Shown here: positions 8,757 through 50,145 of the stretch, one piece after another | Layout: every line of letters begins with the position of its first letter | How positions within the stretch are numbered: the first letter of the stretch is position 1 | Source: a virus | Direction: 5' to 3' (one strand) | Length of the DNA: 64,000 nt | Virus record (IMG/VR): IMGVR_UViG_3300006052_000009 | Location: 8,895 to 72,894 of that record | Translations under genes and position numbers: made by a program | Notes under the pieces: model-generated | Databases searched by the model: none | What the model was told of the DNA's origin: nothing | What the model saw: only the letters and a program-made list of their open reading frames with translations

Positions 8757-9061
8757 GAATAAATCTGGCTGAACTTCTAAAACAAAATGGGGTAGCATTA
8801 ACCCGAGGGAGCAAACTATTTTTACTTTTCCTATTGTCTGGCTGCATCACAAGCAACAATCGATTCTACAACACGATTACTGACTGCAAACTAATTGTGC
8901 TCGACAAGAGGTACGTACCTGGCTTTCAGTCTCCAGATAAATATCTGCTGAAAGTGTACGAAAGTGGTGAGTATCGGTGGCTAAGTTCATCGGTGTCACA
9001 GTACAAAGTTCTTGCCATTGGTGATACGCTGAAGACAACACTAATACAGAAGGTGCAATGA
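8753..9061 (+). CDS. Putative lipoprotein
   Basis: Hydrophobic LFLLFLL followed by the lipobox LSGC. Confidence 0.6.
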   Translation: MRINLAELLKQNGVALTRGSKLFLLFLLSGCITSNNRFYNTITDCKLIVLDKRYVPGFQSPDKYLLKVYESGEYRWLSSSVSQYKVLAIGDTLKTTLIQKVQ

Positions 9062-36654: not shown

Positions 36655-39600
36655 GTGGCTGAAGAAATTTACATCGCCCCTACGGGCGGCCTGAATACCG
36701 ATGACTCGCCACTCTCAGGTAGCGCAGAGAATCCTAATGTCTCAGATTACCAGCAAGGGGACTACCGTTACGCCTTAAACGCTCGTATAAGTGCATCATC
36801 TCAAGGTAATTCGGGTGGACTTGAGAACATCCCATCCACTTTATTAATTAATAATTATTACACTTGGAACGGCTCCTCATTTGTCTCGGGTTCTCCACAA
36901 TCAGGAACAAACACAGCCATCAACAAATATGAAGACCGACAGAATGGATTAGTTTTTTGGTTTGTAAAAAATTCTAATGGTCATCACGCCATACTTCAGT
37001 ACAACAGGGTAACTCAACAGATTTGGGAGTTACTACAGTGGGACGGATTATTATTTTCAAATTGGATTTCATGCACCAAGATTGATAAGTATTTGCTATT
37101 CACTGATGGCAACACCACGCTAGGTACTGGCAATCCTCCTCGCATCATTGATGTTACTTCTATTTATACTTTGAAGTATACATTAGGAAGTAATTTTTCT
37201 GAGTATCATATCAGCCTATCCAAGTGGGCACCAGTTGCGCCACCTATAATCAACGTGACAGGTCAGGCGGCAGGTAACGTATTTATCAAGGTTGGTATTT
37301 ATCAGTTTGCATACCGGTATATTTATATTGGTGGCTTCCGTTCAACCTGGTCACCAGCCAGCAACTTTGTAAGCAACGAATTACTTGGTTATGTTAACAC
37401 ACCGTCATCTAATCCACTTCAAGGACCATTTACAAACTTTGGAGTAAACACCAATGGCTTTATTTTTGATTACACTACTCCTGCCAACACAGCATTCCCT
37501 CACAGCGATTCAAGATTTTACACATTTGTCGATACTATTGAGTACGCTTATCGTGACTCGGCAAATGCATCATGGAGAGTGTTCAGTAGAGTTCAACTAA
37601 ATGGATCGGCTCCAGCTACCGATATAACTTTTGCAAATAGTGGCGCACTTTATAATGTTGCAGACAGTGACATTGGCCAGCCATACGATGCTGTTCCTTT
37701 ATTAAGTCAAACAGTTGAAGCTATTGATAACAGGCCGATGCTTGGTAACAACTTGGATGACCTTGCACCAATGTCAAACTTTGCTGTGACTAATGTTCAG
37801 GTGTACTCGGTGTCATATACTAACGCGAGAAATGACTGGTTTAATTATTCTGGTGGGGCATTACCTGATAAAACAGCTCAGTGGTTTTCTTTTAAAGAAA
37901 ACGGTATCTACAAACTTGGAATAATATTCAAGCATTACGATGGACGCAGTGGTCTTGTGCAGACTTTGGATTACTGGACTTATAATATTCCTGTTAATTT
38001 AGCACAGAATCCATGTGCTCAGGAGGACCTTCATGCATTAGGATTTAAGATTGCCGCAGGACTTCAGCCACCAGTTTGGGCTGTAGATTATCAGATCGTA
38101 AGAACGAATTGTTTGAACATTGATATGTTCATCATTGGACAAGTGGCAGATATAATATTTCTAACTGCTGGACCAACTACAGATTTATCTACCGGACTGA
38201 ATGCCTCTGTTCAATCGGCATTCTCGGATTATTATAACAACTATAATACTGGTGGCTCTCAGTATCCATTGATCTCAAGAATAATTAATGCAATTAGTAC
38301 CAATGCGGCGGTTTCCTCTCCATTATCTGCTTCTTTAATCTATTTTGACATAAAGAATTTCACGATTTCATCAAACATTGGATTTGGTATTAGTTCTTCT
38401 TCAAATAGTGTCTATTACAATTGGCAACAAGGTGATAGGATAAGATTTTATGCCTCAACAACTTCAAATTTTAGTGGCCCTTATGTTCAATTTGATCAGT
38501 TGATTTTGTACTACAGTGGAACTGGAATAGCGGTGGCCATTCCAGATAATTTTAGTTCATATTACATGGGAAGTAGAACCACTGTAAAGGCAAGTGCAAC
38601 ACCCTCAGCATCCAAATTGTTTTCAATAGAAATCTATCGGCCAAAAAAATATTCTAAAGACAACGATGTTGTTTATTATGAGATGGGTGAATGGTATCCT
38701 GTGTTGCAGCCAGGAACTGGGAGTAGGGCGTTTAGTAAAACTGACTTTACTTGGTCTGGTACTGGATCAGTTACAACATCAACAGTAAACGGGTTCAATT
38801 ATTATAATACATATCCCATTATTAATGGTGACGTTTGGCTTGTTGTAAAAAATTTCTATTACCCATTTGCTGGAGGTGGTAATAACACTGTCTTCAGCGG
38901 GTACTTGGGTGGATTCCAAACAGGTGGATTCAATATTATTACTGACTATCCTTTATTCCCTCAGATGAATCAGGATAGGAATAATGCTGCTGGTATATGG
39001 GAACACAATGTTGGGAAACCGCTGTCGGCCTATAAGTACAACGCTGTTCAACTGAATAAATACAACCAAGTTAGATTTGGTGGTAAGTTTTTAGAAGATT
39101 CAATATTCATAGGCATAAATAATTTCAGAGATGAAAACCAATTCCTCTATCCGTCTGAATATGGAAAGATTCGGGCGATGGTTAATACGAGTAATACGCA
39201 GGTTAAAAACGTGGGTAATATACTATTGGTGATCGGTGAAGAGGAGGCTTGGAGTGTTTATGTAAACAGAACAACGCTCGAGGATCTCAGTGGTAATACC
39301 CAAGTTAGTTTGAGTGACAAGGTACTTGGTGCCTACAATACTTTGCTTGGATCATTCGGTACATTAAATCCGGAAAGCGTAAGCAAGCGCAACTCGAGGG
39401 TTATTTACTGGAATAACAAAAAGGGGACATGGGTTCGTTACAGTGAAGATGGTCTTACTCCGATTAGTAAGTACAAGATGGGCACTTGGTTTAAAAACCT
39501 TGGAATAATAATGTCACCTAGCTTTGCGGCTGGGAATACGCCAGCAACTGCATTGTCTGTGTATGATAATTATTACGATGAATGGATTACATTATTCAGT

Positions 39601-40191
39601 TCATCGTATCTGCCAGGAACATATCAGGGCTACTCCTCATACAAATCAGCAACATTCTCTGAACTTCCAATGGAACACGGAGGCAAAAGGTGGAAGTCTT
39701 TCTTTGATTACAGCACCGATATATTTGCGGCATTGGAAAATGAAGTTTACTCAATCATTGGAACTAATGTTCATATTCATTACGGAGGCACGGATTTCAA
39801 TTCATTCTACGGTTCTAAGAAAGATACTTACTGGCAACCGATAGCCAATCCAGAAATCAGGCGTAAAAAGATTTGGAAAAATGTGCAGGTAGGTGCTCAG
39901 GATAACTGGTCTTTCCCGACAATTACTGGTGACCCTGTCAGTAACGGTGGAACACAGCAACAAACTAGCCTTTTGCTTGCCAACATGAATCAAATTGAGG
40001 GTGACTACTGGTCAGATATCTACCGCGATCAGAATACACCCAATGTTTCCAATGCGATTGTGGAGGGACAGCCGATGAGATCGAAGTCCTTGTCATTGCT
40101 TATGAAGCTAGATCCATCGGTTACTTGGTATTCATTTTTAAGTTGGCTTATGGTGTATTACGACATAAGCGAGAAGACGGCAAAAAAATAG
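36655..40191 (+). CDS. Tail stabilisation or nozzle (muzzle) protein
   Basis: GGLNTDDSP...GDYRYALNAR and YQFAYRYIY...STWSPAS, typical of crAss-like stabilisation proteins. Confidence 0.8.
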   Translation: MAEEIYIAPTGGLNTDDSPLSGSAENPNVSDYQQGDYRYALNARISASSQGNSGGLENIPSTLLINNYYTWNGSSFVSGSPQSGTNTAINKYEDRQNGLVFWFVKNSNGHHAILQYNRVTQQIWELLQWDGLLFSNWISCTKIDKYLLFTDGNTTLGTGNPPRIIDVTSIYTLKYTLGSNFSEYHISLSKWAPVAPPIINVTGQAAGNVFIKVGIYQFAYRYIYIGGFRSTWSPASNFVSNELLGYVNTPSSNPLQGPFTNFGVNTNGFIFDYTTPANTAFPHSDSRFYTFVDTIEYAYRDSANASWRVFSRVQLNGSAPATDITFANSGALYNVADSDIGQPYDAVPLLSQTVEAIDNRPMLGNNLDDLAPMSNFAVTNVQVYSVSYTNARNDWFNYSGGALPDKTAQWFSFKENGIYKLGIIFKHYDGRSGLVQTLDYWTYNIPVNLAQNPCAQEDLHALGFKIAAGLQPPVWAVDYQIVRTNCLNIDMFIIGQVADIIFLTAGPTTDLSTGLNASVQSAFSDYYNNYNTGGSQYPLISRIINAISTNAAVSSPLSASLIYFDIKNFTISSNIGFGISSSSNSVYYNWQQGDRIRFYASTTSNFSGPYVQFDQLILYYSGTGIAVAIPDNFSSYYMGSRTTVKASATPSASKLFSIEIYRPKKYSKDNDVVYYEMGEWYPVLQPGTGSRAFSKTDFTWSGTGSVTTSTVNGFNYYNTYPIINGDVWLVVKNFYYPFAGGGNNTVFSGYLGGFQTGGFNIITDYPLFPQMNQDRNNAAGIWEHNVGKPLSAYKYNAVQLNKYNQVRFGGKFLEDSIFIGINNFRDENQFLYPSEYGKIRAMVNTSNTQVKNVGNILLVIGEEEAWSVYVNRTTLEDLSGNTQVSLSDKVLGAYNTLLGSFGTLNPESVSKRNSRVIYWNNKKGTWVRYSEDGLTPISKYKMGTWFKNLGIIMSPSFAAGNTPATALSVYDNYYDEWITLFSSSYLPGTYQGYSSYKSATFSELPMEHGGKRWKSFFDYSTDIFAALENEVYSIIGTNVHIHYGGTDFNSFYGSKKDTYWQPIANPEIRRKKIWKNVQVGAQDNWSFPTITGDPVSNGGTQQQTSLLLANMNQIEGDYWSDIYRDQNTPNVSNAIVEGQPMRSKSLSLLMKLDPSVTWYSFLSWLMVYYDISEKTAKK

Positions 40192-40801: not shown

Positions 40802-42691
40802 ATGGCCTACCAAGAATTTGCTAATCCTAATGCAGCCGAGGCACCAGATATTGGTGACATGCCTCGGACGCTACAGGCATTGCAATATGTCAATCAGCAA
40901 AAGGAGAGAGCACTACAAGCTAGAAGAACCGCTGCTCAGAATTTAAAGGAATTTACTATAAACGGTAAGGATACGCCTAGTGTTGAGAGATTAACAAAAG
41001 AAGCTCAAGACGTTAAAAATGAAACGGTGAATGATATTATGAATTATGGTTCACCAAGGCCAGAGACTATAAAAAAACGAGATAAGATCGAACTGGCTCA
41101 TAATATAATGAAGACCGTTGATGAACAGACAAAATCTACTCTTGAAGAAATAGGAAAGTGGGATAAGTATATGAATAAGGGTAAGGCTATTGGTGAACTT
41201 GGTGAAGTAGCTACTTTTAATCCACCGGAGAACATGGATTTAATGGAGCATCAGCATGAGAGGGCTAATAGACTTTTAGATTTTCAGAACAAAGTAAATT
41301 CCGCTGTTAAGGGTGGTGATCACACTCCTGAATACTATAATAATGATTTGTTTACTGCTGACTGGGTAACTAAACAACACGAAAAAAATAAATCAAAATG
41401 GGGAGTAGGAACCGATGAAGAGGGTAAAAATTCTGGATCAACTGAAGCTCCACTAGTTGATTCAAAAGGTAATCCAAATGTTGAACCGCACATCAATGCT
41501 TACTTGGAATCTGATCCAAGAGTATTGCCAACAATACAACATGAGGCTATGCAACAAATAGAAAAAAATGTTGAAAATAATATTGCCTCTGATAAGAATT
41601 GGTTGGACAAGGCGGGGAGAGCACTGTATGGGAAACCTTTTCAAAGTAAAGAAGAAGCTATAAATGATTTATTCAATCACCCAAATAATAACATTGTACC
41701 GGAAACAGGTGAACTACAGCCTAGCGCGACAGATGAAAATGGTAGGATATTGAAATTTAATGACAGAGTTAGAAATATTGCAAAAGAAAAACTTGAAGAG
41801 TATAATAATAAATCAAGTGAATACCTGCATGACGTGAGTAAAAACAATCATTCATTTGGTGCTAATAAAAATTCTTCAGTTAACGTACAGTACGATAACG
41901 GAAGCACTGCACCTGGCCTTGGGCTTATTATCAATCATAAAGACAAGCCGATTCCATATGTTAACTTTCAGCCTAATAAATACTACAACCTATCAACTGG
42001 ACAGAATGTTAAAAATGTAAATCATCTTGATTTTAACGCTAACAATTATGTGCTTGTTTTGCGTAAAAAAAATGGTGATTTAGTTCCATTCAAAGCGCAA
42101 GATCACGATCAGTTATTAGAGGAAATAAAGAACACTCCAGCCAAAGATTTAATAGGTAGTGACTTAACGTGGGCTATGAAAGGACAGGCTATAAATAAAG
42201 CCAATGAGTCATCAGCCCTCGATGCAATGTCGGCAGAGATGGCAAAAAATCCATCTCCTGCATTAGCCGCTGCCATCCAAGCATTAAAAGATTTTAAAAG
42301 TGGTGCCTCTGGAATTTCCCCCGAGCCACTTGCTGTAATGCAGAAATTAAGTGGGATGCCAAATATGATTACTGATATGATGATCGAGGTACCCAGAAAT
42401 GGAAGTGCTGAAGCTAATTTGAAGGGATTCACTGGCGTTAATTTACACGATCCAAAAATTCTGAATAGGCCAGAGTTTAAAGATGTAATTGATTCATTCA
42501 ATCAAAAAAAGAAAGAATCCAAAATACCAGAAGAGGCAGTAAAATCATATTGGGAGTCTCCAAAGGGGAAAAGTGATTTATCAAAAATAAAAAATACAGT
42601 AACACAAGATGAATGGAGCAATAAATGGAAGTCATTGAAAAGCGGAGAAAAAATGATCGGATTGGACGGTAAAGAATATACTAAAAAATGA
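40802..42691 (+). CDS. Internal virion (cargo/ejection) protein
   Basis: 629 aa, helical, between the pilot and giant protein genes. Confidence 0.6.
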   Translation: MAYQEFANPNAAEAPDIGDMPRTLQALQYVNQQKERALQARRTAAQNLKEFTINGKDTPSVERLTKEAQDVKNETVNDIMNYGSPRPETIKKRDKIELAHNIMKTVDEQTKSTLEEIGKWDKYMNKGKAIGELGEVATFNPPENMDLMEHQHERANRLLDFQNKVNSAVKGGDHTPEYYNNDLFTADWVTKQHEKNKSKWGVGTDEEGKNSGSTEAPLVDSKGNPNVEPHINAYLESDPRVLPTIQHEAMQQIEKNVENNIASDKNWLDKAGRALYGKPFQSKEEAINDLFNHPNNNIVPETGELQPSATDENGRILKFNDRVRNIAKEKLEEYNNKSSEYLHDVSKNNHSFGANKNSSVNVQYDNGSTAPGLGLIINHKDKPIPYVNFQPNKYYNLSTGQNVKNVNHLDFNANNYVLVLRKKNGDLVPFKAQDHDQLLEEIKNTPAKDLIGSDLTWAMKGQAINKANESSALDAMSAEMAKNPSPALAAAIQALKDFKSGASGISPEPLAVMQKLSGMPNMITDMMIEVPRNGSAEANLKGFTGVNLHDPKILNRPEFKDVIDSFNQKKKESKIPEEAVKSYWESPKGKSDLSKIKNTVTQDEWSNKWKSLKSGEKMIGLDGKEYTKK

Positions 42692-45600
42692 AAACAGGGA
42701 AAGACAATCCTAAGAACTGGACTCCACCAGATGATGCCGTAGAGGTAATGGAGAAGCCATCATGGACTCCTCCTGAAGATGCTATTCCTGTAAAAAAAAA
42801 AGACCATACCGTAAGCGAAACCGCATCTCCAAGTACATCAGCACAACCTGGCTCGGGCGAGTCATCCGTGGCCTTCGAGCAGCCAAAAAAGCCTTCTGGA
42901 AAAGCTACAGAACCCAACATCCTTAATGCGCCTTCCGTCAAGGCAATGCAAGAGGTTGACCTAAGCAAGCCTGAAGAAGAAACAAATATATGGAAGGAAC
43001 TCGGTAAGTTTTTAATCGGAGATACTCAGAATAAACTTTTCCAACAGAAACAAACCAAGGAGCAGAAAGTCAAATCAGAGTTCTTCAAAGAGGCTGGTGA
43101 AGAAGAGGATAAATCTTTATCACATCAAATAGCGCAGGGATTAAAGCAAGTCGGTCCATCTCTTGACAAGGCTGCTGTTGAAAATATTTCAATGCTACCG
43201 AAGGCTTTAGCCATGGCACAGCATGGTGTTGAACTCGGCATAGAAAAGATCACAGGTGCCAAAGCACAACCAATAGAGAATTTATTGCCGATGCAGGCAG
43301 GTAAATGGATTGATGATAAGGCAAGAGAGTTAGGCATCGGTGTGATTGATCCTCGCCACGCAGGATTTTTGAATAGTGAAATTCCTCACATGTTCGGTAA
43401 TATGTTACTCCTTTACATGACAGGCGGTGCATCCGCCGCAGGTAAGGCAGGACAACTCGCAGAGGGACTTGCTAACGAAGGATTGAAGGGAATGACCAAG
43501 GAGGCCATCAAGCATGTAGGGCCGACTGCCGCAGTTGCTGGTGCTCAGATGGGAGTAGCTGAATTTGAGAAAGCAAAAGAAATGGGTGCCTCTGATGATG
43601 CTGCCTTCAGAACTTTCCTTGGCACACTTCCTGCAAGTGGCTTTTATGCTGTACCTCTTGCAAGACAAATAGAGAGAATCAATAATCTTACTGGTGGTGG
43701 TATTGTAAATGCACTTAAGACAAAAGGGATCAACTCAATCGAGATGGCTACTCAGTCGGCAGTGTATAACACCATGTCTAATGCCATTGCTAAAAATCAA
43801 TACGATCCTAACCGAGGATACTTGGAGGGATTGAAAGAGTCTGTAGGCACTGGTGCATTCGTTGGATTGATAATGCCTGGAGTGGTTAAGGTGGCGAAGG
43901 AAAATCCTAAGTACAGAGATGAAATATTGAAGGAGGCAAGAACCGTCCTTGAGAAGCCAGATGTGGTTAAATCACCAGAGCAGACGATCAGTGATGCTCA
44001 GGATGAAATAAAATCTTCTGGTGATCTTGGGAATATAAATCAGAAAGCCGAAGAAATAGTCGATAACCTTAAACAACAAAGCAATGCCGTACAAGAGCCT
44101 AAAGCAGGAGAGGTACTTCAACGCGAACAAGAGCAAGTTGGAGGCACAGGGAGTGAACGTGGACGAGTGGAACAAAGCGTCCAAGGGAAAGAAACTTCCG
44201 GAGAGAGCAATGTCCAAGAGCCACGCACGGAAGAAACTGGCAATGGTGGCGTTGGCAAACAAGAGGAAACATTAAACCAACAACAAAATGAAAATGAAAC
44301 TGGGAACGGGGAAACGCTTCAAAGCAGGCGTGAACAAAATCGAGAAGAAGGAGGGACTGAGCAAGGAGTCAGCCTCAGCGATAATGGCCAGCGCAGGGAG
44401 GAAGAAGTACGGGGCGAAGAAAATGGCGGCCTGGGCGCACAAAAAGTAAATGAGTCAACAATTGGATTTGCACCATATCGTTCGAAAAATGTTAAAACGA
44501 TTAAGGAAGACAGCGAGATTCGTCAGTCGGAAGACTACAAAGCTCATCAAGAGAATGTACAAAAGATTGCAGACGGACTGGGAATAAAGATCGTTGACAA
44601 GGCCGATACGTGGGGTGGATATGTGGACAGCGAGACAGGTGTTCCTGTGCAGGAGGTGTCCAACATGATCCACGTAGAGGGACCGCCAGAGAAGATCAAA
44701 TTGATGGCTGCCTTGCTTGGTAAGACATCCCCAGAGATGCAGGACTCCGTGCTCATCGGTGGCTATAAAAATGAGGGTAACGGGGTAGAATATCGATTTA
44801 ATTTGGGTGATTTTAAGCAGGGTGAAAAAGCCGTAAAACTGCTAAAGGAGAATGGATTGGAGTATTTTACCCTAGATACCAAGACGGGGCAATTGACAAT
44901 TTTAGATCCTGAGAACACGAATACAAAAAATATTGTTACATTTACTGAATCTCTCAAGAAAAATGGAATCGCACATGAACTCAGAGCCAGCAAAATCGAA
45001 GCCGAATTCATCGGATCACAAGATTATGATCGAATTATTGGAGAAGGAGCACGGACTCAAGTGGGAGCAGAGAACGGGTTCGATATTAATGCCCATATCA
45101 AAGGGGCTGAAGGAAAGTATGAAGGGATCAAAAACTCCAAAGCCCTAGAGAAGTTCGGTGTCCAACCAAAGGACATTCCTGCCACAAGCAGTTTACTCAC
45201 AAGACTATTCGAAGGATTAAAGCAGTCGGGAATTACGACAGCTAAGAATGTGTCCGATTGGGTAAGTATTGGTAAGGCAGCTAAACAAAGGGTATCCGCT
45301 TTATTCCAACCAACCATTTACGGACTAAGTAAAATTACGAAAGAACCTGCTTTTGATAAATCGAACTTTGAAAAAGATATTGCCAGTGGTCGCGTATCGT
45401 TTAAAGAACCAAGTGAATCATTGGAGGATAAATATTTTGCAATCACCCATCCAGATGATTTTTATACAGGCAGTACCAAAATAGGTAATAAAAAAATATC
45501 AGAGGGTGGTGGTGGTGTATTTTTCACGCTGGCCAGAGGTGGAAAAGGTGATGTGTGGGCATCTGTTTCTGAAAATGGAGCCAAGAATTTCGCTAAACAA

Positions 45601-48600
45601 TTGAATGAATCATTAGAAAAAAATAATGGCGAAGGTATAGTGATTCTATCTAAACGTGATGATACAAAACACTCAACATCGCTACAAGCTAAAGTTGGAT
45701 TTGTTAAAATGCTTTTGCATTACGGAAAGGATAAAAATGGTTATGACGGATTGATTAAAGCGATCAAGGATATCTATAGCATAGGTAATACAAAAGACGC
45801 TCAAAAAGTTATAGATCTTTTTGATAATTACCTCCATGGTGGTCGAATGGCAGACGGACAAACCATGAACGAGGCAAAGACATCATATCAAAATTTCAGA
45901 GCATCATTAATAAAAAATGCTAATCCATTAATAACTCAGATGATGAGAGATATGGGTTATGAAGGTCCAGAATTTTTTGATGCAACCCAACTAAAAAAGG
46001 GTATCTATAAAGCAACTGGGAAAGGGATTGATACCATGTTTACTGACATTGGTCAGGAAGATTTTTTAAAAGGTGTTGCGCCTGGTTCAGCCTACGCTGC
46101 GATAAAAGTTAACAGTAAAGTCATCGTTGAACCTAACAAAGGACATCCCTCTTATCCATTTTTAATAAAAACTGCGGATGGCTCACCAGTGAAACTAGAT
46201 GTTTTCAAAAGAACATTTATGACTCACGGTAAAAATCAAGCTATCAATGGACGATCTAGTGAAAAGGGAAGTTTTGGAGTAGTAACAACAACAAAGCCAG
46301 ATTACACATTCAATAAAAATGCTGATTTAAATAACCCATCATCAAAGTCATTAATTGATCCGCTTAGTAAATATGGAGCAATTGATAGAACGAATGCCTT
46401 AAAGCAAAACGCTAACGCTCAATTCCGTGTCAAGAACGGTCAGAAGATCATTGAGTCACTCAAAGACTTCAGCCGTGTAAAGAACAAGGCCAAGGCTGTC
46501 GTTGCCTTCACCCACGAAGTAATGCATGGCACAGTTACATCTATCCTCGATGCCGCATCAGAGGGAAATGAGGTTGGACTTAAGCATGCTAATACCATCG
46601 TTGAAGAGTTCAATAAAGCAACTGGTAAGAATATCACCCGCGATCAGTTGCTACAAGGTAATGAACAGTTCAAGCAAGGTAAGACCACTGACTCGTATCG
46701 TGCTGTGCAGGAGTTCATCGCCAGATCGTGGGAACTTTATAACCGCAAGGGACCGAAAGGGTTCAGCGAGTCATTCCAGAAAGTCCTCGATGCGATATCT
46801 ACTTCGTTCCGTCAGGTGTACAAAGCCTGGAAAGGAAGCGAGATCGATGTGCCACTCTCGAAAGAACTCGAGGGTATGTTCAATGAATTATTAGGAAAAG
46901 AAAATGAAAAAACTGAAACCCAACGAACTGGAGAAACTACAGGAGGAGAGCCAGTTTCAGAAACTGCCACACAAGAAGCACTTCCTCCACAAGAAAACAA
47001 AGAAGTCCAAGGAACAGAAGGACTGAAGCAAGAGGCACCTGAGCAAGGACAAAAGAGCCTTTTAAATCGTGCCTATTTTGGCGCAACTGAAGAAACGATA
47101 AAATCGGAAATTGAAAAACAAGGACTACAATATCCGATTGAGTCACATGAAGAAGCTCGAAGAAAGGCTGATGAATTTATTAATTCAGTTGGAATTGACA
47201 ACGCTCTTAATGCGGTTAGAAATAATGAAGTAGAGGATGGTGCCGCTGCTTACATCTGGGCAAAAGCAATTGATTCAATGGATAATAATCCTGTTGAACA
47301 GGCTAAACTATTGGGTGAGTTCGACACTAAAATGCGTTCAAGTGGTAGGCTTATTTCGGCACTTGGTGATGTATACAAAAGTTCTGATTTCAATTACAAT
47401 GTAGAAAGACAAATAAGTCAATTTAAAACATTGAACAATGGACAGATACCTATTGAAGTTGAAAGAAAGTTCCGTGAACTTGATCAGAAACTGAAGGAGG
47501 CTAATGATAAAATCAAACAACTTGAGGCTAACCAAAACTCCTTCAAAAGAATAGCCGAGCACGAAAAGGAGGAACGTAAAAAATTAATAACTGAAAAAAA
47601 GAAAAAGGAGATAGTCAACTTTTTTGATGCTCTGAAAATCGATACCAAAAACAACATTGCAACCGCATCAATATTGCCAATAGGGGTTCTTCCTCATGTA
47701 TGGAATGCGACAGTTGATGTTATTAAACAGGCTGTATTAACAGGTGCCGATGTAGCCAATGCTATTCAGGCGGGTATTGATTACATTAAGGCAAATCAAA
47801 AAGAGCCATTTGATGAAAAGAAATTCAGGGAAGAGTTTACGCCTGAAATTCAAAAGATCATTCCTAGGAAAGAGCCTGTTAAAATGCCTTCCGTTGAACA
47901 AGGAAAAATTAAAATTCCAGACAGTTTAATAAAAGAACTTGTAGCCAATGGGGCATCTACAATTGAGGAACTTACAGATCAGGTTCATTCTCTAATTAAA
48001 GAAACCAATCCGGAGATCACCATTAGGGAGGTGAGGGATGCCATTACAAAGTACGGACGTACTGCTTCAATGAGCCAGGAAGCTATCGATGTAGAGATAC
48101 GTAAGATGAAGAGAATTGGCCGACAGTTGTCAATATTGGAAGACATTCAAAAGAAACAACGTCCACTACGTTCTGGACTTCAGCGGGATAAATTATCTGA
48201 TCATGAAAGAAGACTTCGTAAAGAAATAAACGAGGGCTTAAAAGAATTGCCATTAGATAAAGAGGAGGAGGATAGACAATGGAGGACGGCACTTGATGCT
48301 GTTAAATCACGGCTTCAAAATCAGATATCGGATCTCGAGCATCAAATCGAAACTGGCAAGAAGACACCAAAGAAAAAAGGTATTGAATATGATGCCGAAG
48401 CGATAGCGTTACATAAAAGAAGGGACGAATTAAAAAGCATCATTGAAGAAATTGAAGGGAAACAAGGTGTCCCCGATGAGACAAGATTAAAGAATGCAAT
48501 CAAGGCTGCCGAAAATTCTCATTATGAATACGAAAGAAGAATCAGAGAAAAAGATTTCTATAAAAGAGAAGGGAAGCCTCTTCCTGAATCAGAAGAATTA

Positions 48601-50145
48601 AAGATAGTAAAGGAACAAAGAGATCAGGCCAAAAAGATTTACAATGAATTGAAGGAAAGCGAGGGTGTAGCAGAGGCGCAAAGAAGAGAATCGAGAAAGA
48701 AAGCAATTCGTAAATCGATCTCCGAATACGAAAGAAGAATTAAAGAAAAAGACTTTGTAAAAAAAGAGCCAAAGAAAACTTCTGTAGACGAAGAATTGAA
48801 ACGACTGAAGATTCAAAAGAATCAGATCAAAGAACAATTTGATATTGAGCAAGAGAAAAACAGACTTGCTAATAGAACGAAGTCTGAAAAGGCTTGGGAT
48901 GCAACTTTGGATATTTCTAATCTTCCAAAGTCTTTGTTAGCATCAATTGATATGTCGGCCCCACTTAGGCAAGGAATAATATTAAGTGCTGGTAATCCTG
49001 TAATTGGAGGTAAATCTTTTGTTGAAATGGTTAGACAAGCATTTTCAAAAGAAAGAGCATCCCAATGGCTTCATGAATTAAGGATGACTGATGAGTATCA
49101 ATTAATGAAGGAATCGAAATTATTCCTATCTGAGCCAAGCGTTTCATTGTCTGCCAGAGAAGAATTTTTCATGTCTAATTTAGCTGAGAAAATTCCTGTT
49201 TTAGGAAAATTAGTCGCTGGTAGTAACAGGGCTTATACTGGGTTCTTGAATAAGTTGAGAGCCGATGTTTTTAATTATGGTGTAAATAATTTAAAAGATC
49301 AGGGAATCACAATTGAAAATAATCCAGAGGTATATAAAGCATGGGCATCATTTATCAATAATGCTAGTGGTAGGGGTGAGTTAGGAGCACTAGAAAACTC
49401 TGCAACAGTTTTAAATACTGTATTTTTTGCACCACGATATGTAGCATCAAGGATTAATCTTTTGAATCCTGTAACCTATGCAAAGATGCCACAACCTGTA
49501 AGGATAATGGCAATGAAAAATATGCTTTCATTTCTTGGATTTTATGCCATTACAGCGATGATGATGTCGGCGGCAGGAGCCGAGGAAGAAAAAGATCCTC
49601 GTAGCACTGATTTTGGTAAGTTCAAATTTGGCGATACACGTTATGACATACTCGCTGGATTCCAACCAATCATTAGATTGATTGGTCAGTTAGCAACAGG
49701 TGAGGTTAAAAGAAAAGGTAAGATTCAATCTTTGACATCACATGAAAAGAATGGAAAAATTGTACAGCCACAAGAAACAAGGGCTGACATTTTATTAAGA
49801 TTCGGAAGAAGTAAATTATCGCCAGCATTGGGAGCCGCTGCTGATCTATTGACGGGAAAAGATATGGTTGGACAGCCTGTTACTTGGGACTCAGAACTGC
49901 TTAAAACAGTTACTCCTCTGTACATTCAGGACATCCACTCAATTTATAAGAGCGAAGGAGCCACTGGAGTCTTAACATCGGCCATTCCTGCGTTCTTTGG
50001 TGTTGGAGTTCAGAATTATCCAGAGAAACCAGAAAAACAAAAGAAATCATTATCATTAAGACAACAGATAATGAAGCCATTTAAGGAGGCCATGCATCCA
50101 ATGGATAGTACCTTTAATAAACTGAAGAAAGACTTGAGAAAATAA
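42688..50145 (+). CDS. Giant internal virion or polyvalent protein (2485 aa) with a zincin HExxH domain
   Basis: Gly/Ala-rich membrane-like region, low-complexity linkers, HEVMH at 46513-46527, long coiled coils and a C-terminal DPRSTDFGK region. Confidence 0.8.
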   Translation: MKTGKDNPKNWTPPDDAVEVMEKPSWTPPEDAIPVKKKDHTVSETASPSTSAQPGSGESSVAFEQPKKPSGKATEPNILNAPSVKAMQEVDLSKPEEETNIWKELGKFLIGDTQNKLFQQKQTKEQKVKSEFFKEAGEEEDKSLSHQIAQGLKQVGPSLDKAAVENISMLPKALAMAQHGVELGIEKITGAKAQPIENLLPMQAGKWIDDKARELGIGVIDPRHAGFLNSEIPHMFGNMLLLYMTGGASAAGKAGQLAEGLANEGLKGMTKEAIKHVGPTAAVAGAQMGVAEFEKAKEMGASDDAAFRTFLGTLPASGFYAVPLARQIERINNLTGGGIVNALKTKGINSIEMATQSAVYNTMSNAIAKNQYDPNRGYLEGLKESVGTGAFVGLIMPGVVKVAKENPKYRDEILKEARTVLEKPDVVKSPEQTISDAQDEIKSSGDLGNINQKAEEIVDNLKQQSNAVQEPKAGEVLQREQEQVGGTGSERGRVEQSVQGKETSGESNVQEPRTEETGNGGVGKQEETLNQQQNENETGNGETLQSRREQNREEGGTEQGVSLSDNGQRREEEVRGEENGGLGAQKVNESTIGFAPYRSKNVKTIKEDSEIRQSEDYKAHQENVQKIADGLGIKIVDKADTWGGYVDSETGVPVQEVSNMIHVEGPPEKIKLMAALLGKTSPEMQDSVLIGGYKNEGNGVEYRFNLGDFKQGEKAVKLLKENGLEYFTLDTKTGQLTILDPENTNTKNIVTFTESLKKNGIAHELRASKIEAEFIGSQDYDRIIGEGARTQVGAENGFDINAHIKGAEGKYEGIKNSKALEKFGVQPKDIPATSSLLTRLFEGLKQSGITTAKNVSDWVSIGKAAKQRVSALFQPTIYGLSKITKEPAFDKSNFEKDIASGRVSFKEPSESLEDKYFAITHPDDFYTGSTKIGNKKISEGGGGVFFTLARGGKGDVWASVSENGAKNFAKQLNESLEKNNGEGIVILSKRDDTKHSTSLQAKVGFVKMLLHYGKDKNGYDGLIKAIKDIYSIGNTKDAQKVIDLFDNYLHGGRMADGQTMNEAKTSYQNFRASLIKNANPLITQMMRDMGYEGPEFFDATQLKKGIYKATGKGIDTMFTDIGQEDFLKGVAPGSAYAAIKVNSKVIVEPNKGHPSYPFLIKTADGSPVKLDVFKRTFMTHGKNQAINGRSSEKGSFGVVTTTKPDYTFNKNADLNNPSSKSLIDPLSKYGAIDRTNALKQNANAQFRVKNGQKIIESLKDFSRVKNKAKAVVAFTHEVMHGTVTSILDAASEGNEVGLKHANTIVEEFNKATGKNITRDQLLQGNEQFKQGKTTDSYRAVQEFIARSWELYNRKGPKGFSESFQKVLDAISTSFRQVYKAWKGSEIDVPLSKELEGMFNELLGKENEKTETQRTGETTGGEPVSETATQEALPPQENKEVQGTEGLKQEAPEQGQKSLLNRAYFGATEETIKSEIEKQGLQYPIESHEEARRKADEFINSVGIDNALNAVRNNEVEDGAAAYIWAKAIDSMDNNPVEQAKLLGEFDTKMRSSGRLISALGDVYKSSDFNYNVERQISQFKTLNNGQIPIEVERKFRELDQKLKEANDKIKQLEANQNSFKRIAEHEKEERKKLITEKKKKEIVNFFDALKIDTKNNIATASILPIGVLPHVWNATVDVIKQAVLTGADVANAIQAGIDYIKANQKEPFDEKKFREEFTPEIQKIIPRKEPVKMPSVEQGKIKIPDSLIKELVANGASTIEELTDQVHSLIKETNPEITIREVRDAITKYGRTASMSQEAIDVEIRKMKRIGRQLSILEDIQKKQRPLRSGLQRDKLSDHERRLRKEINEGLKELPLDKEEEDRQWRTALDAVKSRLQNQISDLEHQIETGKKTPKKKGIEYDAEAIALHKRRDELKSIIEEIEGKQGVPDETRLKNAIKAAENSHYEYERRIREKDFYKREGKPLPESEELKIVKEQRDQAKKIYNELKESEGVAEAQRRESRKKAIRKSISEYERRIKEKDFVKKEPKKTSVDEELKRLKIQKNQIKEQFDIEQEKNRLANRTKSEKAWDATLDISNLPKSLLASIDMSAPLRQGIILSAGNPVIGGKSFVEMVRQAFSKERASQWLHELRMTDEYQLMKESKLFLSEPSVSLSAREEFFMSNLAEKIPVLGKLVAGSNRAYTGFLNKLRADVFNYGVNNLKDQGITIENNPEVYKAWASFINNASGRGELGALENSATVLNTVFFAPRYVASRINLLNPVTYAKMPQPVRIMAMKNMLSFLGFYAITAMMMSAAGAEEEKDPRSTDFGKFKFGDTRYDILAGFQPIIRLIGQLATGEVKRKGKIQSLTSHEKNGKIVQPQETRADILLRFGRSKLSPALGAAADLLTGKDMVGQPVTWDSELLKTVTPLYIQDIHSIYKSEGATGVLTSAIPAFFGVGVQNYPEKPEKQKKSLSLRQQIMKPFKEAMHPMDSTFNKLKKDLRK
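44084..44275 (+). CDS. Nested small basic protein in the +1 frame of the giant gene (63 aa)
   Basis: MPYKSLKQERYFNANKSKLEAQGVNVDEWNKASKGKKLPER.... A-rich leader TTAAACAACAAAGCA like those of stand-alone genes. Confidence 0.65.
   Translation: MPYKSLKQERYFNANKSKLEAQGVNVDEWNKASKGKKLPERAMSKSHARKKLAMVALANKRKH
44288..44449 (+). CDS. Second nested small basic protein in the +1 frame (53 aa)
   Basis: MKMKLGTGKRFKAGVNKIEKKEGLSKESASAIMASAGRKKYGAKKMAAWAHKK*. Leader ACCAACAACAAA lies 12 nt after the previous stop. Confidence 0.65.
   Translation: MKMKLGTGKRFKAGVNKIEKKEGLSKESASAIMASAGRKKYGAKKMAAWAHKK
46904..47026 (+). CDS. Possible third nested basic peptide in the +1 frame (40 aa)
   Basis: MKKLKPNELEKLQEESQFQKLPHKKHFLHKKTKKSKEQKD*. 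Coincides exactly with a low-complexity linker of the host protein. Confidence 0.4.
   Translation: MKKLKPNELEKLQEESQFQKLPHKKHFLHKKTKKSKEQKD

Follow-up and report, generated by a model that had tools for sequence, protein, structure and literature searches.

The window, i.e. the whole stretch of DNA analysed here (64,000 nucleotides, positions 8,895 to 72,894 of IMG/VR record IMGVR_UViG_3300006052_000009), belongs to an uncultured phage that is known only from freshwater metagenome runs. It carries a giant gene encoding a protein of 2485 aa (P0003) and, wholly inside this gene on the same strand, two small open reading frames (ORFs) in the +1 frame relative to the giant ORF, 12 nt apart. This arrangement had been described in an earlier note on this DNA, and its coordinates were confirmed in the sequence. 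The features of the locus are as follows:

36655 to 40191, plus strand: 1178-aa ORF with the crassvirus muzzle C-terminal domain (crAss_MUZ_C, PF25729; E 8.2e-07, 29.8 bits, cut-off 27).
42688 to 50145, plus strand: giant host gene P0003, 2485 aa, in cargo position downstream of the crass-type muzzle-like gene.
44059 to 44083, plus strand: leader of gene 1, A-rich and without a Shine-Dalgarno sequence; ranked by leader score, within the top 8.4% of internal ATGs (n = 154).
44083 to 44448, plus strand: host-frame spacer (host aa 466-587), acidic and of low complexity, between the N-terminal domain and the conserved TWGGYVDSETG module.
44084 to 44275, plus strand: nested gene 1 (ORF1, protein P0001), ATG start, TAA stop, 63 aa, pI 10.4, family 1.
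44263 to 44287, plus strand: leader of gene 2, A/C-rich (..TTAAACCAACAACAAA), overlapping the end of gene 1; ranked by leader score, within the top 1.9% of internal ATGs (n = 154).
44288 to 44449, plus strand: nested gene 2 (ORF2, protein P0002), ATG start, TAA stop, 53 aa, pI 10.6, family 2.
44323 to 44427, plus strand: 105-nt segment (host aa 546-580) missing from the protein of the closest relative, P0004 (protein alignment A1).

Gene 2 has a possible second start at 44294. The gene calls of the source contain the giant protein P0003 and neither small ORF, as anticipated by the suggestion that standard gene callers miss such genes. Codon usage does not separate the small frames from the host frame. 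The 72.9-kb record (estimated 68% complete) contains no second copy of family 1 or family 2.

The muzzle-domain ORF lies two genes upstream of P0003, which places the giant gene in the cargo position. P0003 has one full-length relative (P0004) and several partial ones (P0005-P0013). Across the nested stretch, the host frame reads NAVQEPKAGEVLQREQEQVGG..., with a pI of 4.5, a net charge of -12 and 12% hydrophobic residues. Searches for related loci with P0003 and with alignment A1 found no loci; a degenerate pattern derived from the spacer had no match in viral contigs, and a pattern derived from the adjacent domain gave six metagenome loci, of which 0/6 were related. Alignment A2 yielded three distant relatives (L008-L010) that lack this spacer and contain stops in the other frames, and they are therefore uninformative on the nested frames.

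Both small proteins have close and numerous relatives. In phmmer searches of 5.8 billion proteins (self excluded), 770 of 772 candidates were relatives of P0001 (best E 1.6e-17, 82-90% identity), and all 27 candidates were relatives of P0002 (best E 1.5e-13, 82% identity). Searched against 1.84 billion proteins, the family-1 profile matched 735 representative clusters (E<=0.001). The family 1 consensus is MPYKS..Q.RYFNAN..LE.QGV.V.EWN.ASKGK.LP followed by a basic tail, and that of family 2 is KLG.G.RF...KIEKKEGLSK.SA.AIMA.AGRKKYGAKKM. P0001 carries 15/15 invariant columns of the family 1 alignment A3 (a 40-residue core from Met1), and P0002 carries 10/10 invariant columns of the family 2 alignment A4, including LG.G.RF and AGRKKYG. 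With its own ATG and TAA, P0001 has the length typical of its family, the free-standing copies of which range from 47 to 107 aa (median 59). The motifs MP[F/Y]KS..Q.R and GRKKYG, which the earlier note had offered, proved in these homology searches to mark two real and abundant families of small basic phage proteins.

Named families and sequenced phages were less informative. Searches of Pfam and PHROGs with both peptides gave marginal matches only (phrog_9450, E 0.032; phrog_2621, E 0.086; RlmN_N, E 0.11), and the two PHROG matches were given no weight because the same models match 3 and 9 of 14 six-frame control genomes, respectively. All members of A3 and A4 stayed below the Pfam cut-offs. 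In tblastn searches of 50,697 GenBank phage records, P0001 had no match and P0002 had two matches at E=3, and no cultured phage carrying family 1 or 2 was identified among these records. The sole link of P0001 to DUF3008 (PF11450) is an Atlas feature neighbour at 0.83, a lead only; P0001 gave no match to this family at E<=10, nor did any of the 29 A3 members at E<=1.

The absence of significant matches in Pfam, PHROGs and GenBank phages would suit a reading of the T-poor spacer according to which the ORFs arose by chance: the +1 frame would be open owing to the scarcity of T, and the peptides would be basic because GAA/GAG-rich codons read AAG in +1. The stretch contains 10.7% T, so openness of the +1 frame alone means little; the +1 frame of the giant gene has 15 open stretches of at least 40 codons (up to 123), and the minus strand is also open here. 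However, hundreds of significant homologues are called as genes elsewhere, and ten control alternative-frame ORFs of the giant gene gave 0 PHROG matches. In a six-frame search of the window, the family profiles, which include the window's own sequences, matched ORF1 (E 2.5e-33) and ORF2 (E 1.1e-27) and nothing else, and the other +1 ORFs at 44450-44587 and 46904-47026 showed no family signal. On its own genome, the family-1 profile, which contains the window's own sequence, gave E 1.6e-32. The homologues and the profile matches refute a chance origin, to which we attach practically no credence.

The distribution of the families was analysed in 160 IMG/VR loci, comprising the best 80 of 227 confirmed loci for family 1 and the best 80 of 180 confirmed loci for family 2. 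Sixty-one of the 82 family-1 copies in these loci stand alone, 9 are in-frame N-terminal fusions and 12 (11 distinct sequences) are nested, each lying within a same-strand ORF of 1283-4050 codons. Relative to the family frame, the host frame is +2 in 12/12 nested copies, each of which has its ATG and forms a small ORF of 51-82 aa. In L078 and L105, the giant ORF that contains family 1 also contains a nested copy of family 2. The question raised in the earlier note, whether homologues occur both free-standing and nested, was answered positively for both families. L078 and L105, both crass-like and deeply diverged from the window, share its gene order (muzzle, 196 aa, 629 aa, giant gene with both nested genes, 172 aa), with muzzle proteins 30-40% identical to that of the window and giant-gene flanks 12-27% identical. 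In six loci, the small genes lie 4-12 nt past the end of a homologous giant gene. Family 1 also forms the N-terminal module of many longer, variable proteins, and it adjoins portal, terminase or giant genes. A poorly resolved tree of the family-1 core (41 columns) required 9 changes of state, and 21/500 shuffles were as low.

The reading frames were compared between nested and free copies. Over the 41-codon family-1 core, the host frame is free of stops in 13/13 nested copies vs 4/54 distinct free copies; AT-rich free copies contain 4-9 stops in the equivalent frame, and the control frame (+1 of the family frame) contains 0-3 stops in nested copies. For family 2, host-frame stops are absent in 3/3 nested copies vs 5/69 distinct free copies. 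Among 12 distinct nested family-1 copies, pairwise identity averages 0.68 for the family frame, against 0.47 for the host frame and 0.51 for the third, non-coding frame; in the orthologous trio L087/L088/L091, the corresponding ranges are 0.72-0.84, 0.50-0.69 and 0.48-0.69. In nine nested pairs, the changed codons of the family frame comprise 8-14 synonymous vs 4-18 non-synonymous ones, and those of the host frame 0-4 synonymous vs 12-23 non-synonymous ones. The comparison of synonymous sites in each frame, proposed earlier as a check, is thus one-sided: about half of the changed codons are synonymous when read in the small frame, but hardly any when read in the host frame. Selection maintains both frames, in different ways. 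It is purifying in the small frame, whereas in the host frame stops are kept out and the encoded peptide is unconserved. The frame identities and the synonymous counts bear out the expectation that the nested frame is under selection and that the host frame, as a spacer, is left to drift.

The location of the nested segment, which lies at module junctions and varies in position within the giant genes, would suit a recombination site, and the conserved entity could in principle be an RNA or DNA signal of this kind, or a packaging site, rather than a protein-coding sequence. However, variation is heaviest at the third position of the small-frame codons, both in 53 free copies (0.59 vs 0.26 and 0.22) and in nested copies (0.385 vs 0.28 and 0.22). 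This pattern is the signature of protein coding, and a nucleic-acid element is considered extremely improbable.

The small genes could also be relics, engulfed and no longer translated, whose intact appearance reflects a short elapsed time or slow drift of the spacer. Three observations lean this way. At the protein level, P0004 shows an in-frame loss of 35 codons (host aa 546-580) that would remove the core of gene 2, which suggests that gene 2 is dispensable or decaying in at least one lineage. The family-1 tree leaves room for one fairly recent origin. The sequencing runs listed as carrying the stretch are two freshwater DNA runs, with no RNA run among them (in the second of these, the contigs do not cover 43684-44380). 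Against a relic, the layout is kept at a flank identity of 12-27%, and every nested copy retains an ATG, a stop and the family length, together with ribosome-binding sequences or A-rich leaders. The one-sided synonymous pattern further implies that the spacer is not slow but constrained in one frame only. Loss of translation is accordingly judged unlikely.

The initiation signals were evaluated with a leader matrix derived from 41 of the window's gene starts and ranked against 154 internal ATGs. The claim that each nested gene has an A/C-rich leader holds, as both starts rank high by this matrix (top 8.4% and 1.9%), and the leader of gene 2 is similar to the TAAACTAACCAAC-type leaders that precede the phage's own genes. 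The 60-nt minimum free energy at the start of gene 1 is -1.5 kcal/mol, among the 1.3% least folded, and that of gene 2 is -2.0 kcal/mol, among the 1.9% least folded. Across the nested loci, GGAG lies 3-9 nt before the nested ATG in four loci with a G+C content of 0.44-0.63, and nine AT-rich loci have A-rich leaders.

These signals also bear on a different route to the small frame, a +1 frameshift just upstream that would yield a fusion of the N-terminal domain with family 1 ending at 44275. The small frame of the window is open for 8 codons ahead of the ATG, and one database protein, P0243, has family 1 in frame at its C-terminus, which indicates that such a fusion can exist. However, a stop stands one codon ahead of the nested ATG in L087, L088, L090 and L091, the nested ATG is kept in 13/13 copies, the four GGAG sequences precede it, and the free copies begin at the same Met. 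Programmed frameshifting as an extension from the upstream gene was rejected because the shifted frame is not open that far (only the 8 codons in the window, and the stops in the four loci), and a frameshift product is considered very unlikely.

We favour the reading, with a probability of roughly 85%, that the 366 bases of 44084-44449 are dual-coding, with two old small-protein genes in the +1 frame and the giant gene reading the same DNA as a spacer. The two families are old, widespread, basic and helical, with lengths of about 55-60 aa. In the giant cargo-position gene of this crass-like phage, the acidic, disordered spacer would join the N-terminal domain to the downstream modules. The earlier note had taken the nested peptides to be overprinted on the giant gene, and the direction is reversed here. 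The small genes probably represent the ancestral frame on which the giant gene's spacer was overprinted, as judged from their wider, mostly free-standing distribution and from the six loci in which they follow a homologous giant gene by 4-12 nt. The giant gene may have engulfed them through read-through or fusion at a module junction. Each protein would then be produced from its own ATG, through internal initiation on the late mRNA that is independent of the other, and the unstructured A-rich leaders without a Shine-Dalgarno sequence would aid such initiation in the style of Bacteroidota.

Dual coding of this type can be compared with several known systems. The two-component spanin genes Rz/Rz1 of phage lambda and its relatives may be embedded, overlapped or separated (Kongari et al. 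2018, PMC6139136). The present locus shares with them a small gene contained entirely in the +1 frame of a larger gene on the same strand, a pair that is separated in other phages, and genes that default callers miss. Unlike in Rz/Rz1, there is a tandem of two embedded small genes that are unrelated to each other and probably older than their host, and the host is a 2485-aa gene in virion-cargo position that uses the overlap as a spacer only; the proteins themselves are unrelated to spanins. An Rz1-type o-spanin was rejected for P0001 and P0002, as both lack cysteine and hence a lipobox.

In viral overprinting, such as gene E within gene D of phiX174, the more widely distributed frame is regarded as the ancestral one (Pavesi 2021, PMC8227390). 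The present overlap is likewise internal and on the same strand. However, the novelty in the textbook case is the short embedded gene, whereas here the frame of the long embedding gene is probably the novel one and serves as a linker only. Out-of-frame remodelled genes, formed by out-of-frame fusion or fission in the E. coli pangenome, contain short, disordered regions (Watson, Lopez and Bapteste 2021, PMC8788219), and the spacer resembles them as a short disordered segment probably gained by reading another gene's alternative frame after fusion. The original frame would stay a functional gene inside the new one here, and the sections of PMC8788219 considered contain no such statement. In phi-crAss001, the muzzle gene gp44 is followed by the genes of the crassvirus cargo proteins gp45-gp50 (Bayfield et al. 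2023, PMC10172136). P0003, similar in size to the 262-277 kDa cargo proteins and downstream of a muzzle-like gene, is likened to them by position and size; its gene contains two nested ORFs, whereas the passages of PMC10172136 considered here mention no nested genes. Within the search terms used, no paper was found that describes small genes within the giant cargo or polyvalent genes of phages.

Gene callers bar embedded genes, so two abundant viral families go unannotated when nested, and the 'linker' of the giant gene is misread as meaningless. The locus and its counterparts clearly and repeatedly show an overlap whose long gene would be the newcomer, and they point to one growth route of giant multi-module phage proteins, in which adjacent small genes are read through. 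A substitution silent in the host frame suffices to abolish the nested start codon, so that the arrangement lends itself to a clean test.

The family 1 product might be a virion-associated handle that serves capsid or portal targeting, or DNA binding via its basic tail. This is a low-confidence guess, prompted by the occurrence of family 1 as an N-terminal module of variable proteins and by its proximity to portal, terminase and giant genes. A broader and rather doubtful speculation is that the family-1 module could be a general virion handle (portal/capsid targeting, DNA tether) that is used free, fused N-terminally to variable enzymes or hidden out of frame, and that its DNA could be a junction at which giant cargo genes gain or swap modules. 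In that case, giant injected proteins in many phage groups might have been built by repeated read-through of small structural genes, which would survive inside them as unannotated virion proteins.

With regard to structure, Foldseek searches with the family-1 model (pLDDT 72) gave no PDB match and no viral match. The AlphaFold2 model of family 2 is a three-helix fold (pLDDT 84.5), the fold matches of which are uncharacterised viral proteins only. The Atlas neighbours of the small proteins are unnamed viral clusters.

The two small open reading frames (ORFs) and the giant gene that holds them on the same strand are located in the window as follows.

44084-44275: gene 1 (product P0001), ATG start, TAA end, 63 aa, +1 frame of the host ORF
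44288-44449: gene 2 (product P0002), ATG start, TAA end, 53 aa, +1 frame of the host ORF
42688-50145: host ORF (product P0003), 2485 aa

Genes 1 and 2 are separated by 12 nt and encode basic proteins (pI 10.4 and 10.6), and the host-frame peptide over 44084-44449 is acidic and of low complexity (pI 4.5, net charge -12, 12% hydrophobic residues). Openness alone is weak evidence of coding, because T makes up 10.7% of the dual-coding stretch, 15 open stretches of at least 40 codons (longest 123) occur in the +1 frame of the host gene, and the minus strand is likewise open over the nested stretch. Codon usage did not separate the nested frame from the host frame, and no significant match to P0001 or P0002 was obtained in Pfam, PHROGs or GenBank phages (tblastn). 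A chance origin of both ORFs was favoured at first and was overturned by homologues in a collection of 5.8 billion proteins, in which 770 of 772 candidates (34-111 aa) were relatives of P0001 (best E-value 1.6e-17, top matches 82-90% identical) and 27/27 were relatives of P0002 (best E-value 1.5e-13). On these sequence comparisons, 44084-44275 and 44288-44449 are judged to be real dual-coding genes. The giant protein is present in this collection as a called gene of the window and both small ORFs are absent; the source annotation therefore missed both, as the earlier note had supposed of standard gene callers. A second copy of either family was absent from the 72.9-kb record, which is approximately 68% complete. 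Two further +1 ORFs with ATG starts were observed, one beginning directly at the gene 2 stop (44450-44587, 45 aa) and one within a second acidic spacer at P0003 aa 1405-1455 (46904-47026, 40 aa); PHROG and family-profile signals were looked for in both and not found.

The alignments revealed two well-defined families, so the peptide motifs given in the earlier note were right. Family 1 has a 40-residue N-terminal core with 15 invariant columns followed by a variable basic tail, and in family 2, 10 columns are invariant, among them those of LG.G.RF and AGRKKYG; neither family matched any Pfam model. When 1.84 billion proteins were searched with the family-1 profile, 735 representative clusters (50% identity) passed E ≤ 0.001. 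Of the best 150 representatives, about half carry family 1 as the N-terminal module of a longer protein (median 381 aa, maximum 1022 aa); many such longer proteins are in the set P0174-P0308. Ten of these longer proteins were scanned; eight had no Pfam match and one (P0188) carries NUDIX and DUF6321 domains beside the module. In a single protein, P0243, the core is C-terminal and in frame.

The best 80 of 227 confirmed family-1 loci and the best 80 of 180 confirmed family-2 loci in IMG/VR were fetched, and their six frames were searched with the profiles of both families. Homologues both free-standing and nested, which the earlier note had proposed to look for, were found for both families. 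Among the 82 family-1 copies in these loci, 61 are stand-alone genes (47-107 aa, median 59), nine form the N-terminus, in frame, of ORFs of 133-395 aa, and 12 (11 distinct sequences) are nested in ORFs on the same strand that span 1283 to more than 4050 codons. All 12 nested copies start with ATG, encode 51-82 aa and lie between codon 49 and about codon 2000 of the host, whose frame is in every case the family frame +2, identical to the window. Locus L027, flagged as nested by a midpoint test, was found not to be nested. Within the loci examined, L078 and L105 alone have family 2 nested in a giant ORF of the same strand, and both also carry a nested family-1 copy. Some copies of both families are overlain by long antisense open frames. 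At six loci (L044, L047, L063, L066, L067 and L070), a free family-1 gene begins 4-12 nt past the stop codon of a giant gene with homology to the nested-host set, and this arrangement is likely an intermediate toward nesting. Other free copies have a portal gene (P22 or SU10 type) or the large terminase gene as neighbour; one such terminase gene (L014, 2533-4719) holds an intein splicing domain. In L135 (6001-6323; locus G+C 67%), family 2 precedes a divergent family-1 copy in reverse order, 29 nt apart, both free-standing. The family-1 tree on 41 columns gave branching without resolution.

The 41-codon family-1 core contains no host-frame stop in 13/13 nested copies (window included) vs 4/54 distinct free copies, and AT-rich free copies have 4-9 stops; in the other alternative frame, the nested copies carry 0-3 stops and resemble the free copies. 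For family 2, the host frame is stop-free in 3/3 nested copies vs 5/69 distinct free copies. Mean pairwise identity among the 12 distinct nested family-1 copies is 0.68 in the small frame (0.71 in free copies); the host frame, at 0.47, does not exceed the third, non-coding frame (0.51). In the orthologous trio L087, L088 and L091, identity is 41-84% for the flanks, 72-84% for the small protein, 50-69% for the host-frame reading and 48-69% for the third frame. Changed codons in nine nested-copy pairs were 8-14 synonymous vs 4-18 non-synonymous in the small frame, and 0-4 vs 12-23 in the host frame. The frame identities, stop counts and substitution patterns indicate that selection keeps the small proteins and that the host frame needs only to remain open, which agrees with the proposal that selection acts on the nested frame. 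According to PMC8227390, the more widely distributed of two overlapping frames is ancestral, a rule under which the small-gene frame would be the older one and the host frame the later addition; the overlap class observed here is the one tied to high disorder in that review.

Gene leaders in the window are A-rich (42% A, 12.5% G), lack a Shine-Dalgarno sequence and often resemble TAAACTAACCAAC. Among 154 internal ATGs, the leader scores of genes 1 and 2 rank in the top 8.4% and 1.9%, which bears out their suggested likeness to the stand-alone gene leaders of this phage, and in predicted folding both leaders are near the bottom of this set (least-folded 1.3% and 1.9%, respectively). Four nested loci with G+C of 0.44-0.63 have GGAG 3-9 nt upstream of the ATG. 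A frameshift fusion was ruled out in L087, L088, L090 and L091, since a stop lies one codon ahead of the nested ATG. The nested genes would be expressed from their own leaders, either A-rich and little folded or GGAG-bearing. An A/C-rich leader resembling TAAACTAACCAAC also lies, with no Shine-Dalgarno sequence, upstream of starts such as 9265, 16278, 29090, 29842 and 33720, and could be a late promoter or translation-leader motif of the phage.

A crassvirus muzzle C-terminal domain (PF25729, E-value 8e-07) was identified in the 1178-aa ORF at 36655-40191; among the structural-block ORFs, nine other large ones had no Pfam match. The window, L078 and L105 have a common gene order, namely, muzzle, 196-aa gene, 629-aa gene, giant gene with both nested genes, and 172-aa gene. 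The muzzle proteins of L078 and L105 are 30-40% identical to that of the window, and the giant-gene flanks 12-27%. The three giant genes have a common N-terminal domain and C-terminal part (P0003 aa 1442-2444, 54% identical), and lineage-specific modules are inserted at the spacers, between genes 1 and 2 in L105 and after gene 2 in the window (aa 590-1404); the dual-coding overlap is therefore located at module junctions. P0004, the closest relative, is 70% identical to P0003 over the searched region (aa 150-1000) and lacks host aa 546-580, a loss that would delete the gene 2 core and that was counted as evidence against the dual-coding reading. In L105 (4933-6156), families 1 and 2 lie about 900 nt apart in one ORF of 1935 codons, and the inserted module of about 300 aa has an HExxH-like motif; P0003 has an HEVMH motif inside its own inserted region. 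The module at 44458-45135 (P0003 aa 591-815), with the invariant motif TWGGYVD.ET..V.EVSN, is common, at 41-54% identity, to giant proteins of 1788-3828 aa with otherwise differing architectures; a Pfam search of P0003 gave no family for it.

The family-1 model is predicted to be helical (pLDDT 72) and the family-2 model to be a three-helix fold (pLDDT 84.5), and structural searches with both gave no informative match. The conserved N-terminal handle on variable partners, near portal and giant genes, suggests, as a guess, a virion-associated role in targeting or DNA binding. The nearest architecture, described in PMC6139136, is the Rz/Rz1 spanin pair, which is embedded, overlapped or separated; unlike o-spanins, P0001 and P0002 have no cysteine, and this identity was therefore excluded. 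PMC8788219 provides the nearest evolutionary concept, out-of-frame gene remodelling, and the crassvirus cargo genes of PMC10172136 fit the host gene setting. In the literature searched, no description of small genes nested within giant phage genes was found; embedded overlapping phage genes are already known as a kind.

A 151-nt contig of run X1 resembles the window only over 44084-44128 (the opening 45 nt of gene 1), where six differences were counted. The likeness starts exactly at the ATG and follows unrelated, G+C-rich sequence; the contig is probably another organism's copy in the same sample.
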